Shown here piece by piece: positions 37,944-40,996 of a DNA stretch of 64,000 bases; the stretch's first letter is position 1, and every line of letters starts with the position of its first letter. A program made the position numbers and the translations under genes. Under the pieces are notes generated by a model. The model made no database searches and was not told where the DNA came from. It saw only the letters and a list, made by a program, of their open reading frames with translations. This DNA comes from Desulfomonilia bacterium (lineage in GTDB: Bacteria; Desulfobacterota; Desulfomonilia; UBA1062): NCBI GenBank assembly GCA_963664325.2, contig CAXXDQ010000004.1, positions 863,693 through 927,692 of the forward strand, in the 5' to 3' direction.

Positions 37944-37951
37944 CTTTGCAT
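37936..37951. repeat. 16-bp direct repeat copy 2, overlapping the hydrolase stop codon
   Basis: Exact match to 36501-36516. Confidence 0.8.
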
Positions 37952-37953
37952 GT

Positions 37954-38074
37954 TCCAATTTCTATTCAAGCGCTGCCTTTGTCGGCTGCGTCGGAATGCT
38001 CCTCGACATACGTAAAAGTATGCCTGCGTCGCTTCCTCCTGGCCTCCTCGGCATCATCTTGAATATAAATTGGA
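37954..38074. repeat. About 120-bp palindromic REP/MITE-like element
   Basis: Terminal arms tccaatttctattcaag / cttgaatataaattgga; apical gacatac..gtatgcc; second copy at 8873-8994. Confidence 0.75.
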
Positions 38075-38095
38075 GATGTTAAAATCTCTTTGCCT

Positions 38096-38250
38096 CGTCA
38101 CTGCGAATCTATAAAGCTGTTAAGCTATTAAGCTTATGAGCTGTTAATCAAAATCTTTATCGCCTTTGATCCTTCTTAACAGCTTATCAGCTCATCAGCT
38201 TATAAGCTGTTTTGTACGCCTCGTTCCTCGGCTGCGTCACTCCTTGACCT
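38096..38250. repeat. Palindromic element containing an 8-nt-period AAGCTGTT-type repeat hairpin
   Basis: Left arm aagctgtt-aagctatt-aagcttat-gagctgttaa (38114-38147); right arm ttaacagctt-atcagctc-atcagctt-ataagctg (38176-38209). Confidence 0.7.
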
Positions 38251-38416
38251 GCTTTGTTCTAACGCCCTGTATCTTTCATTATCCTTTGAACGTTATAAAA
38301 TAATTTTCCGAACATTGGTGCACACTTATTTTATGATATATTTTGTCTTTCCAAATTATATTTATGAATGTAAAATTTATCAAAATTCAAGAAAAAGACT
38401 ACAGGGTATATTAATT

Positions 38417-38423
38417 GTTCGGT
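38417..38423 (+). mobile_element. Core (G/TT) site of first cassette, attI-like or secondary integration site
   Basis: GTTCGGT is the exact complement of R'' ACCGAAC of attC1; AT-rich upstream DNA without attC geometry. Confidence 0.65.
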
Positions 38424-38445
38424 GAAATAATATAGGAGGTAAATC

Positions 38446-38925
38446 ATGAATAAAATAAACCTAAAAAGTTCAAATGAAAATTTAGAGCATCGTATAGAGC
38501 TTCTTACTTTGCTTTTCAATAAAGCAGAGGAGAAAGTTAAGCATGCAGACACATTCAGGCAAAAAAACATGAACTATAGCCTTGTTACGTTTGGCGCACT
38601 TATCACTCTTGGCTTAAAATTCAATGACATAAATTATAGACTCATTATTTCAGGCACACTTTTTGTTCTTATGGTCATCTTTTGTTTATGGGATCGTCGT
38701 TGGCATAAAACAAAGCATGGATGGGATTATTCTGGCCAAGTCTATTATCAAAAAATGGAAGAACTTGTTAACGACCCTACTAAAGATATTTCTTTCAAAT
38801 CTTACTATGAAGAAGGTGAGAAGACAGCCGAACGATTTAAATTCCAGCCATCTGTGTTCTATTTCTTGATTGTTGCATCAGTAATATCGTTCTATTTATT
38901 TAATGCAAAGTGCATCTTACCGTAA
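38446..38925 (+). CDS. Integron cassette 1: small hypothetical membrane protein (3 predicted TM segments)
   Basis: AT-rich, GGAGG RBS, hydrophobic segments, ends directly at attC1. Confidence 0.75.
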   Translation: MNKINLKSSNENLEHRIELLTLLFNKAEEKVKHADTFRQKNMNYSLVTFGALITLGLKFNDINYRLIISGTLFVLMVIFCLWDRRWHKTKHGWDYSGQVYYQKMEELVNDPTKDISFKSYYEEGEKTAERFKFQPSVFYFLIVASVISFYLFNAKCILP

Positions 38926-38926
38926 G

Positions 38927-38983
38927 ACCGAACAAGTCACTTCAGTCGAACGGCTATGCCGGCAGCTGAGCAGTACGTTATCA
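38927..38983 (+). mobile_element. attC site 1 (57 bp)
   Basis: R'' ACCGAAC, 5 nt, L'' ACTTCAGT ... L' GCTGAGC, 5 nt, R' GTTATCA. Confidence 0.85.
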
Positions 38984-39002
38984 ATAGAACGAGAAAGGAT
39001 GA

Positions 39003-39758
39003 ATGTTGATCATTAAGTGTAAAATTTGCGGTGGCAGCGGATCAGTACAGCCCGCCGGTTCATTCGGAATTTTTGGAGACAACAGGAAACCTTGTCCTTC
39101 CTGCAAAGGTGCCGGTGAACTTGACCTGAATGTACCCCAGGAAAGGCTGACAACGTGTAAGTTCTGTGGTGGCCGTGGCATCATCAGGTCAATCGATCTT
39201 GCTATTTTCGCAGCGACGGGGACAGTCTGTCCAACCTGCAAAGGGCTCGGTGTGTTAGAGCGGCCTCAAATTGGTGCTGAAAAGATGACCGTCGCAAAGG
39301 CCGATCAAGAAGGACCGTCTCGTCCGCATGAGCCACAGTACGATATCGCCATTTCCTTTGCAGGAGAAGACAGATCAATTGTCCATCACTATGCCGAGGA
39401 TATTAAGACTAAAGGCCTGAACATTTTCTATGCAGACTTCGAGGAAGTCGACTTGTGGGGAACCAACCTCTACGATACCCTCGATACCGTATACCGTTTA
39501 AAGGCACGTTACTGCGTCATGTTCCTGTCGAAGCATTACGCAGCCAAGGTTTGGACCAATCATGAGCGGCAGTCGGCCCAGGCGAGAGCGCTCACCGAGA
39601 ACAAAGAGTACATCCTTCCGGTAAAGCTCGACAATACCGAGGTTCCGGGCGTTTTACCTACTATCGTTTACTTGGATTACGTGAAGATTGGACATGCAGG
39701 GCTTGTGAAGGCCACACTTGAGAAGCTTTCCAGACACAGAAGCAAAAAGGCTGAATAG
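39003..39758 (+). CDS. Integron cassette 2: DnaJ-type zinc finger fused to a TIR domain
   Basis: Four CxxCxGxG repeats; TIR motifs YDIAISFAGEDR, FLSKHYAAKVWTNHE, YILPVKLD. Confidence 0.85.
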   Translation: MLIIKCKICGGSGSVQPAGSFGIFGDNRKPCPSCKGAGELDLNVPQERLTTCKFCGGRGIIRSIDLAIFAATGTVCPTCKGLGVLERPQIGAEKMTVAKADQEGPSRPHEPQYDIAISFAGEDRSIVHHYAEDIKTKGLNIFYADFEEVDLWGTNLYDTLDTVYRLKARYCVMFLSKHYAAKVWTNHERQSAQARALTENKEYILPVKLDNTEVPGVLPTIVYLDYVKIGHAGLVKATLEKLSRHRSKKAE

Positions 39759-39809
39759 TCCGGCAATCCAGCCGACTCGTTACACTCGCGGCCGATTTTG
39801 TTGCTAGAG
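39753..39809 (+). mobile_element. attC site 2 (57 bp) with mutated core triplets
   Basis: GAATAGT, 5 nt, AATCCAGC ... GCCGATT, 5 nt, GCTAGAG; AAC/GTT replaced by AGT/GCT. Confidence 0.7.
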
Positions 39810-39823
39810 CCTAAAAATCACTG

Positions 39824-40693
39824 ATGAGCGACTATAAGGAAGTTAATAGAAACATCTCAAAGCTGGAATCTATGGTTCCAGGGCTTTTCGATTTCGGCAA
39901 GCCGGATTGGAAGGCTGTATGGAATCAAATACGAATCACCGGGCAGGGTTTCAAAGGATCAAGATTCCCTACAAAGGAAGAACACGAAAGTGCGTGGAAT
40001 AGGTTTCAAAATCTGGTTTCTGAAGTTAAAACCCAGCAAGCACAAAATCAGAAGAGTTGGGAAAAGAAGAAAGACGAGTCTGAACGCCTAAAGGATATGA
40101 TTGTATCTTGTGCTAGGTCTGCAAGGCCATACGACAGCGGGCTTGCTGACGTAATACTCACAATAGCAACAGGGGGTGCAATTTCACTGTTAAACGCAAT
40201 CATGGGCCCTTTCGACGAAGAGAAGCAAATGCTTGTGTCCTGCAGCGAACGTCTTCAAGAAGGATGGACGCTACTGCGGGACAACAAAGAAAAGATGCTC
40301 GGGAAAGACAAAGGGATTGCGTTTGAAGCGCTGAATGAAACCAAGGAAATTCTTGACATAAGATGGGATCGGTACAAGAGGGAGCGTCAACGGGCTTGGG
40401 ATGAATACCAGCGCGAACGTTCGGATAGGCGCCACAATTGGGAGCAAAAAATAGAATCCAATATCAGCGCCTTGGAAGACCGCCGAGAAAAGCTGAACGG
40501 GGTACTAGTTCATAAAGAGCGGCACCTTGACGAGCTTTACGACAAGCTCAGAGAAGCATGGTCGGATGATTTTAGATCGCGGGTTTCTGATTGGATATCA
40601 GAGGAAGAGTCAAGTATTAGCGATATCAAAGAAAAGCTGAGAAATATCGAAGATTGGATATATGAAAACAAGGACAAGCTTCGCTCAAGATAA
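39824..40693 (+). CDS. Integron cassette 3: helical coiled-coil protein (DUF349-like repeats possible)
   Basis: Charged helical composition, repeated W..F/R motifs (FPTKEEHESAWNRFQ), one hydrophobic stretch VILTIATGGAISLLNAIMG. Confidence 0.7.
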   Translation: MSDYKEVNRNISKLESMVPGLFDFGKPDWKAVWNQIRITGQGFKGSRFPTKEEHESAWNRFQNLVSEVKTQQAQNQKSWEKKKDESERLKDMIVSCARSARPYDSGLADVILTIATGGAISLLNAIMGPFDEEKQMLVSCSERLQEGWTLLRDNKEKMLGKDKGIAFEALNETKEILDIRWDRYKRERQRAWDEYQRERSDRRHNWEQKIESNISALEDRREKLNGVLVHKERHLDELYDKLREAWSDDFRSRVSDWISEEESSISDIKEKLRNIEDWIYENKDKLRSR

Positions 40694-40696
40694 TGA

Positions 40697-40753
40697 CTCT
40701 AACAACCGCATGAACAAGATGTCGAGCCACTCCCGGTTATGCAGGCGTTAAGT
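40697..40753 (+). mobile_element. attC site 3 (57 bp)
   Basis: R'' CTCTAAC, 5 nt, L'' CATGAACA ... L' GGTTATG, 5 nt, R' GTTAAGT. Confidence 0.85.
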
Positions 40754-40951
40754 GGTACCCAAATGGACAATGAAACATAAACAAGGTTGAAGTGCTCGAG
40801 ACTGGTGAATTGCAATTTTATGTATAGTTGGGAACGCCAATGATATTATGACTATTGAAAGTTAGACCAGCTTCAACAAGATCATGCCGCGAAAGCAAGG
40901 AGAAACACAGTATCAGATAAGAAGAGTCAAAGGCATTCAGTTTTACTTAAC
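40748..40951 (+). mobile_element. Probable fourth cassette remnant without a long ORF
   Basis: Begins at G/TTAAGT and ends at the exact complement ACTTAAC (40945-40951); rest of attC not recognisable. Confidence 0.45.
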
Positions 40952-40996
40952 AGCTCAGCAGCATATTCCTATGTCGAGCATGAGTGCAAAGCGGAA

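Follow-up and report, generated by a model that had tools for sequence, protein, structure and literature searches.

A DnaJ-type zinc-finger module joined to a TIR domain in a candidate single-protein conflict system of a Desulfomonilia bacterium

Introduction

The targets of the sensor domains are known for very few single-protein TIR systems. The closest in layout to the protein described here is SpbK, encoded by the integrative and conjugative element (ICE) ICEBs1 of Bacillus subtilis, which comprises 267 amino acids (aa) with an N-terminal domain (residues 1-94), a linker (95-115) and a TIR domain (116-267), as given in its description (PMC11984713). SpbK is described there as an NADase that becomes active once the phage portal protein is bound by the N-terminal domain, a step that the authors suspect to promote TIR oligomerisation (PMC11984713). 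In addition, a study of TIR candidates of Escherichia coli reports that 12 of 32 systems protected against phage, that all 12 needed the TIR active-site residues, and that four of nine new systems were single proteins (PMC11350192). Here, we describe a gene at positions 39003..39758 (+) of a 64,000-nucleotide (nt) window, the whole stretch of DNA that was analysed, from a Desulfomonilia bacterium (GenBank assembly GCA_963664325.2, contig CAXXDQ010000004.1, positions 863,693 to 927,692). Its product joins a DnaJ-type cysteine-rich module (residues 1-88) by a linker (89-111) to a TIR domain (112-251); in layout, which was compared here rather than sequence, it is near-identical to SpbK.

Based on sequence comparison and on the analogy with described systems, we propose, with a probability of roughly 55%, that this zinc-finger–TIR protein is a stand-alone, horizontally mobile conflict protein of the anti-phage type, in which an input module is connected through a flexible linker to a TIR effector.

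Results

Domain organisation of the zinc-finger–TIR protein

The coding sequence starts with ATG and encodes 251 aa followed by a stop codon, in the order zinc-finger module, linker, TIR domain. Four CxxCxGxG motifs were read in the DNA of the plus strand, namely CKICGGSG (motif 1, residues 6-13, 39018-39041), CPSCKGAG (motif 2, residues 31-38, 39093-39116), CKFCGGRG (motif 3, residues 52-59, 39156-39179) and CPTCKGLG (motif 4, residues 76-83, 39228-39251). They are followed by WTNHE (residues 184-188, 39552-39566, +), in which the codon GAG at 39564-39566 specifies E188. A first-pass annotation of the window had described four such motifs, a linker and a TIR domain with a Glu in WTNHE, and the open reading frame (ORF) list, the DNA and Pfam locate all of these elements as it stated.

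The TIR domain (39336..39755, +) was delimited by Pfam TIR_2, by structure matches and by the invariant E188. TIR_2 (PF13676) scored 56.3 bits against a cut-off of 28 (E 5.7e-15, residues 115-227), and PF01582 likewise exceeded its cut-off (25.3 vs 21.3 bits). A profile search of solved chains returned BtTir (7uxr, E 1.2e-9) and AbTir (7uwg, E 1.9e-9), with WTnhE placed opposite WTEYE and WTNYE, and Foldseek assigned a probability of 1.00 to PdTIR, BtTir, BtpA and AbTir at target-normalised TM-scores of 0.60-0.78. The glutamate equivalent to E188 is the catalytic residue of AbTir-type enzymes. As judged from its sequence, the TIR half is of the AbTir/BtTir type with an intact catalytic-type glutamate. 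Both domain calls of the first-pass annotation and its catalytic-type Glu were thereby borne out, given the Pfam scores above cut-off, the conservation of E188 and the alignment of WxxxE to BtTir and AbTir.

The DnaJ-type module (39003..39266, +) was assigned from PF00684, from the conservation of its Cys and Gly residues and from weak fold matches; the Pfam family DnaJ_CXXCXGXG (PF00684) scored 39.1 bits against a curated cut-off of 32.7 (E 8.8e-10). Entropy, spacing and predicted local distance difference test (pLDDT) values revealed two variable hairpin loops, the first between motifs 1 and 2 (residues 14-30, 39042..39092, +, pLDDT 60-70) and the second between motifs 3 and 4 (residues 60-75, 39180..39227, +, pLDDT 53-62). 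The linker (39267..39335, +) is predicted to be disordered, with pLDDT <50 at residues 93-103 in AlphaFold2, and is variable (entropy ~2.9 bits) except for R107 and P108. The AlphaFold2 model of the whole protein, built on alignment A1, has a mean pLDDT of 79.8 and comprises a beta-hairpin-rich N-terminal module, the disordered stretch 93-103 and an alpha/beta TIR domain. The zinc module modelled alone reached a pLDDT of 76.1.

Foldseek with the zinc module alone returned nothing at E <= 1e-3. VIA-align retrieved 12 chains at Z >= 2, all of them weak and each matching only residues ~2-42 or ~43-93; the best were DnaJA2 (Z 4.9), BSD2 (4.3), a chain of the Ycf2-FtsHi motor complex (4.1) and Anti-TRAP (4.0), with the DnaJ proteins of S. 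pneumoniae (3.8) and E. coli (1exk, 3.6) among the further rows. Moreover, each half of the module aligns best with the unit motif 2-hairpin-motif 3 of the host's own DnaJ. Since both halves fit one DnaJ unit and some family members carry near-identical loops, the module looks, from its sequence, like a tandem pair of two-knuckle units.

These near-identical loops occur in a short-loop subgroup (P0107, P0100, P0102, P0103; L028, L029), in which the two loops within a protein are the same or almost the same, as in P0107, where KIGDIVSGYKP is present twice. The loop pairs of this subgroup suggest a recent duplication or conversion within the protein, and perhaps also a recognition with two-fold symmetry. 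Concerted evolution of both loops was rejected as a feature of the family, as it applies to a subset only: similarity within a protein exceeded that between proteins in 62 of 108 sequences, and the two loops of the window protein are unlike (score -0.19).

A conserved scaffold and TIR domain with two hypervariable loops

A search of 5.8 billion proteins (E <= 1e-3, length 138-440 aa) yielded 646 homologs. Among the 120 listed, 115 contain at least three CxxCxGxG motifs (exactly four in 101), and most are 236-259 aa long. Each of the eight cysteines is present in 91-98% of the listed homologs, as are the glycines of the motifs (91-98%), and E188 is found in 100%. In alignment A1 (50 sequences), C31, C34, C52, C55, C76, C79, W184, H187, E188 and R189 are invariant. 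Column entropy is lowest in the TIR domain (0.2-1.2 bits over most blocks) and amounts to 0.8-1.4 bits in the motif blocks, as opposed to high values of 2.35-2.75 bits at residues 13-30 and 2.85-2.98 bits at residues 61-72. Likewise, the spacing varies between motifs 1 and 2 (19-26 residues) and between motifs 3 and 4 (19-27), and 104 of 108 sequences show a spacing of 21 between motifs 2 and 3. For the ten closest coding sequences, nonsynonymous divergence (dN) was 0.31-0.72 in the loops, compared with 0.08-0.16 for the TIR domain and 0.025-0.046 for the zinc scaffold. Taken together, the zinc scaffold and the TIR domain are conserved and the two loops are hypervariable, which is a receptor-like anatomy. 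Two homologs (P0052 and P0123) keep the module in its N-terminal position and carry six CxxCxGxG motifs instead of four.

In the source records the homologs are named 'TIR domain-containing protein' (a Firmicutes metagenome-assembled genome (MAG), Candidatus Methanoperedens and Smithella) and once 'DnaJ-class molecular chaperone', and genome records with close copies belong to Desulfomonilia, Oligoflexales, a delta proteobacterium and Zixibacteria. The carriers hence include bacteria and the archaeon Methanoperedens, and those that are named are environmental MAGs. The first-pass annotation had not recognised the architecture from named defence systems; indeed, we found it in none of them, but the 646 matches represent a large family that has already been sequenced.

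Modularity of both halves

Against 1.84 billion cluster representatives (50% identity), a profile search gave 11144 matches at E <= 1e-3; at E <= 1e-30 there were 3048 matched clusters with the TIR subtype. Nearly all of the top 150 are matched over residues ~105-247 alone, which correspond to the TIR half; it occupies one end or the other of proteins that are 164-1194 aa long. At least two CxxCxGxG motifs are present in nine of these 150, namely P0052 and eight of the other 149. Pfam, applied to 138 of the best 150, assigned TIR_2 to 137 and DnaJ_CXXCXGXG to eight, next to scattered TPR, HEAT, WD40 and NYN domains, no listed partner exceeding 8 of 138. In one protein (P0131, 279 aa) the order is reversed, with TIR_2 at residues 7-129 followed by the DnaJ domain at 166-231 and a total of six CxxCxGxG motifs.

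When the zinc module (residues 1-95) was searched for in proteins longer than 440 aa, a single match was obtained (P0270, 479 aa). It shares 58% identity with residues 2-112 of the window protein (E 1e-43), comprising the zinc module and the linker, and the likeness ends at the effector junction. The remainder of P0270 consists of PNP_UDP_1 (135-384) and a bDLD3 domain (Bacterial Death-like domain 3; 407-477), and two PADLOC models, PDC-M60C (1.1e-41) and 'Effector, PN-superfamily' (4.9e-26), recognise its PNP part. TIR and PNPase are among the predicted effectors fused to bDLD3, as described by Kaur et al. (2021, eLife, PMC8195603). Because P0270 shares the module and differs in the effector, the zinc finger and linker appear as one input cassette in front of two nucleotide-processing effectors. 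Such a portable cassette fits the one-protein sensor-effector that the first-pass annotation had put forward.

Small stand-alone proteins with a DnaJ central domain, one cluster of them viral, were retrieved from the ESM Atlas with the zinc module after exclusion of TIR and J-domain clusters; their scores of 0.81-0.84 make them leads only. The search for shorter stand-alone or split forms returned one 94-aa match on a 662-bp contig, which was probably cut at the contig end.

Genomic location and distribution

The host genome (G000) contains one copy of the zinc-finger–TIR gene, and the gene was found in none of its 40 nearest relatives, three of which gave only weak TIR-only matches (28-30% identity). 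Class-wide, 122 genomes yielded eight matches at E <= 1e-30, full length in only two (G000 and G106); in the other six the TIR part alone was matched, in ORFs of 305-362 aa. In three genomes of the same genus the flanks are kept (kup, an alpha/beta hydrolase gene where present, and pyrC/pyrB) at 76-82% DNA identity, without the segment corresponding to ~37951-40824 of the window, and synteny restarts at ~40824. The slot between the alpha/beta hydrolase gene and pyrC is a variable hotspot, which elsewhere carries a 476-aa ORF (G001, L098) and a 188-aa ORF (G002, L099), neither with a Pfam, PADLOC or PHROG match.

An interspersed-repeat cluster at ~37950-38290 has 44 matches in the host genome, and its repeat unit of ~100 nt (37964-38064) occurs there in >20 copies at 80-93% identity and in dozens of copies in the three genomes of the same genus. 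Inverted pieces of this repeat bracket an island of three ORFs, the left arm lying inside the cluster at 38129..38153 (pair I2, 25 nt, 80% complementary) and the right arm, a member of pairs I2 and D1, at 40941..40965, with no strand given to either. The zinc-finger–TIR gene is accessory, and the variable slot that holds it is bracketed by repeats and flanked by conserved housekeeping genes.

For the analysis of neighbours, 35 full-length loci were used (4 genomes, 30 metagenomes and the window), and 154 neighbours within 4 kb were clustered. No conserved partner gene emerged, as no neighbour family was present in more than five of the 35 loci; those that recurred were N6_N4 DNA methylases (5), ABC-type ATPases (5), HTH-Panacea (4) and a protein with AAA_15 and OLD-TOPRIM (2). 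A family scan of 119 neighbours at 30 loci additionally revealed ResIII (2), Gp49 (2), a DUF772 transposase (2) and many housekeeping families. Some loci adjoin defence or toxin-antitoxin genes, namely OLD-type AAA_15-TOPRIM, N6_N4 methylases, ResIII, HTH-Panacea and Gp49. That one protein may suffice, as the first-pass annotation had proposed, agrees with the lack of a conserved partner among the 35 loci and with flanking ORFs that have no homologs beside other copies.

The upstream ORF of the island (38446..38925, +) encodes 159 aa with two hydrophobic segments, belongs to no Pfam or PHROG family and has a GC content of ~31-37%, compared with ~49% for the zinc-finger–TIR gene. The downstream ORF (39824..40693, +) encodes 289 aa rich in charged residues, with no Pfam family above cut-off and no PHROG family. 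In the ESM Atlas it scores 0.94 to a cluster of hypothetical proteins mostly from Thermodesulfobacteriota, and similar clusters (0.91) occur in Methanobacteriota. Both flanking ORFs gave only weak PADLOC rows (E >= 0.01), and at the 85 other loci no homolog of either lies beside a zinc-finger–TIR gene.

As to the gene start, a Shine-Dalgarno-like AAGGA lies upstream at 38995..38999 (+); it is separated by 3 nt from the ATG at 39003 and by 6 nt from a TTG at 39006, which directly follows the ATG. We infer that AAGGA serves as the ribosome-binding site. Since the nearest homologs begin with TTG at MIIKCKIC and the spacing of AAGGA fits 39006 better, the real start may be one codon downstream, at the TTG.

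Further proteins related to the effector were noted. An IMG/VR viral contig encodes a 396-aa ORF (L101:5530-6717, +) of the same TIR subtype, in which WTNHERQAAQARAL is conserved and the N-terminus contains four CxxC pairs without the GxG signature, that is a different zinc-type N-terminus. The host genome encodes a second TIR protein on contig C7 (L109:1108-2520, -; 470 aa) with DUF4062 (7-86) and TIR_2 (219-340). According to 2026 preprints, DUF4062 resembles TIR and serves as an NADase domain in defence against phages; if this description holds, the protein would have a double-NADase architecture. On contig C2 (L108:349-2286, -), a 645-aa protein with SIR2_2 and TPR matches PDC-S65 and the SIR2 part of ThsA- and pAgo-associated models of PADLOC, and may be a further candidate single-gene NADase.

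Discussion

A proposed mechanism and its weak points

We propose that the zinc module is built from two two-knuckle units in tandem, that each of them presumably binds a single zinc ion and presents one beta-hairpin loop, and that the two variable loops form the likely contact surface for a trigger. By analogy with SpbK, the module would bind an infection-derived, probably multimeric, protein; this binding would bring TIR domains together, and the assembled TIR domains would cleave NAD+ and thereby arrest the infected cell. What we infer in this scheme is that the protein binds zinc, is an NADase, oligomerises and protects against phages, as well as what kind of trigger it responds to.

More tentatively, the zinc module with its linker might represent a new portable recognition cassette of prokaryotic immunity, with a rigid scaffold and two diversifying loops, that can be plugged before or behind different suicide effectors. 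As the module originates from the DnaJ region that deals with clients and DnaK, it might detect phage proteins that exploit Hsp70, or new phage assemblies, and so link chaperone-type recognition to NAD+ depletion; we regard this extended proposal as possible but rather doubtful. A chaperone decoy, which the first-pass annotation had considered, and the sensing of unfolded proteins have nothing specific in their favour: the module shares only 32-34% identity with the cysteine-rich domain of the host DnaJ, and the protein contains neither a J domain nor a DnaJ C-terminal domain.

Several observations weigh against the proposed role as an anti-phage protein or against parts of the scheme. In DnaJ, the zinc sites are formed by motifs 1+4 and 2+3. 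For the topology of the zinc sites in the window protein the fold matches are weak (Z <= 4.9), and the pairing may be 1+2/3+4 or 1+4/2+3. The ratio of dN to synonymous divergence (dS) in the loops was 0.15-0.51 where computable, that is below 1, with dS saturated for most divergent pairs, and close pairs differ by 0-3 substitutions per region. Rapid change of the loops is thus evident, but positive selection on them was not shown, given the saturation of dS, the dN/dS below 1 and the few changes in close pairs, and the fast change of the loops may reflect relaxed constraint instead of an arms race. No integrase or tRNA was found at the island borders, as examined with the ORF list and a tRNA scan of the window, in which no tRNA was detected at all. 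Defence-type neighbours are few (MTase_II in 4 and OLD-like TOPRIM in 2 of 119 neighbours, as raw counts without a background control), and several loci lie in housekeeping settings, such as L003 between a GidA/MnmG-like ORF, read from its translation, and a radical-SAM-like ORF, and L004 downstream of acetyl-CoA carboxylase genes. As to carriage by phages, none of the six IMG/VR loci with the TIR subtype has CxxCxGxG motifs. Moreover, no PADLOC model spans the full length of the protein, and 20 of the 32 E. coli TIR candidates gave no protection, according to that study (PMC11350192).

Alternative explanations

The effector domain itself invites a comparison with Thoeris, in which the TIR protein would produce a cyclic ADP-ribose (cADPR)-type signal upon infection and the responding effector would be encoded elsewhere in the genome. 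The PADLOC model ThsB1 matches the TIR part (3.7e-8), and among solved structures AbTir and BtTir, which make cADPR isomers, are its nearest relatives; in addition, the host genome encodes a SIR2_2-domain protein on another contig. However, Thoeris is an operon and no conserved neighbour was seen at the 35 loci. The sole SIR2_2 protein is the SIR2-TPR fusion, which has no ThsA-type C-terminal domain according to Pfam, in a search directed at SIR2_2 only and not at Macro, SLOG or caspase-type effectors. Moreover, the position of the zinc module before a PNPase in P0270 suggests direct control of the effector. We therefore consider a Thoeris-like signalling role unlikely.

A non-immune function is likewise conceivable, in which oxidation or loss of zinc at the Cys4 sites unfolds the N-terminus and frees the TIR domain, so that a redox- or stress-switched NADase imposes dormancy or slows metabolism, mostly in anaerobes. 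Thiol-zinc centres, including that of DnaJ, are redox-active, and Hsp33 and RsrA are thiol-zinc switches. The eight conserved zinc-type cysteines and the housekeeping neighbours at several loci would suit such a switch, as would the named carriers, which belong mostly to anaerobic lineages (Desulfomonilia, Smithella, Methanoperedens and Zixibacteria). However, it would not require loops that are hypervariable in sequence and variable in length, and it is at odds with the patchy distribution (2 of 122 class genomes, 0 of 40 relatives) and with the variable genomic slot. Furthermore, the module occurs in P0270 together with a Death-like adaptor domain that is described in conflict systems. A redox switch thus appears improbable.

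That the three ORFs of the island form one multi-gene system, composed of the 159-aa membrane protein, the zinc-finger–TIR protein and the 289-aa charged protein, is suggested by their common strand, the short gaps of 77 and 65 nt, the repeats that bracket them together and the fact that no terminator-like site was called between them. However, the signal scan performed no better than on shuffled sequence (9 promoter-like sites vs 5.7 +/- 2.5, and 2 terminator-like sites vs 2.9 +/- 2.0), the GC content differs sharply (31-37% vs ~49%), and the flanking ORFs have no homolog at the other 85 loci and belong to no recurring neighbour cluster. On account of the lack of homologs beside other family members we reject a conserved three-gene operon, and we give a multi-gene system confined to this island very little credence.

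Finally, the presence of TIR structures of BtpA/TcpB among the fold and sequence matches might hint at a non-enzymatic scaffold or adaptor, or at a secreted host-directed factor like BtpA/TcpB, but this is highly unlikely given that the Glu of WxxxE and the residues around it are invariant across the family, that neither a signal peptide nor a secretion-associated domain was seen in the sequence or by Pfam, and that the named carriers are environmental MAGs.

Significance

If the protein acts in the proposed manner as a sensor and effector in conflict with phages, it would stand for a large family of small proteins (~250 aa) across bacteria and archaea. Because its anatomy is legible, with an invariant scaffold and TIR domain, variable loops and a disordered linker, the specificity for the trigger can be tested directly by loop swaps and phage escapers. 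Should the zinc finger prove to be an input cassette of general use, which P0270 and the reversed form suggest, prokaryotic immunity would gain a new recognition domain. If true, this would be the first non-chaperone role of the DnaJ cysteine-rich fold in bacteria outside Anti-TRAP. Should the protein confer no phage protection, a widespread, unannotated and putatively NAD+-cleaving family of anaerobic sediment microbes would still have been delineated.

Comparison with known systems

The zinc module shares with the DnaJ/Hsp40 chaperones the four CxxCxGxG motifs, a PF00684 score above cut-off and weak top fold matches that are mostly DnaJ, BSD2 and Anti-TRAP. In contrast to these chaperones, the window protein lacks a J domain, a G/F region and the DnaJ C-terminal domain, as judged by Pfam. 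Its 32-34% identity to the cysteine-rich domain of the host DnaJ resides mostly in the motif residues, and it differs in motif spacing and in its variable loops. Membership in the DnaJ family was rejected, as NCBIfam DnaJ_bact scored 27.5 bits against a cut-off of 377 and a real DnaJ is encoded elsewhere in the genome; the same applies to Anti-TRAP (PF15777), with 26.1 bits against a cut-off of 32.

In sequence and fold, the TIR half is matched best by AbTir, BtTir and PdTIR (TM-scores of 0.71-0.76 for 3h16 and 7uxr), but these matches are confined to the TIR domain, and no solved chain matches both halves. With ThsB of Thoeris the protein shares a TIR domain with a catalytic-type Glu. However, the ThsB1 match covers only positions 165-260 of 303, and membership in Thoeris was rejected, since no ThsA-type gene is adjacent in the window or at the 34 other loci. 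The retron-TIR models of NCBIfam, like its DnaJ models, all remained below cut-off.

The best PADLOC match of the window protein is PDC-S66 (3.1e-17). It was rejected as an assignment, as the match is limited to profile positions 137-240 of 282, which correspond to the TIR part, and leaves the N-terminal 136 positions unmatched. PDC-S66 behaves as a general TIR model, since it was also matched in two control genomes (Bacteroides thetaiotaomicron and Sulfolobus acidocaldarius); in the literature searched, it turned up in genome-survey papers only. No published description of a zinc-finger–TIR architecture was found in a search that left aside supplementary candidate catalogues, which may list the family. 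The main text of the E. coli TIR study contains neither 'DnaJ' nor 'zinc' (0 times each; PMC11350192).

With the bDLD3-linked effectors the relation is through P0270, which joins this zinc finger and linker to a PNPase and bDLD3. The window protein differs from them in having no Death-like domain, and 'DnaJ' occurs 0 times in the main text of PMC8195603.

SpbK and the zinc-finger–TIR gene are both single genes without a partner and reside in accessory DNA. They differ in the N-terminus, which is of the DnaJ-type double-zinc kind here and is given simply as an 'N-terminal domain', with zinc or DnaJ unmentioned, in the accessible part of the description of SpbK. Moreover, SpbK is triggered by the portal protein YonE and carried by an ICE, whereas no ICE or integrase is visible around the window gene, and no row named SpbK is among the PADLOC matches of the window. 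Single-protein systems that combine a sensor with a TIR domain are already known, and what would be new here is the portable input module built on a zinc scaffold.

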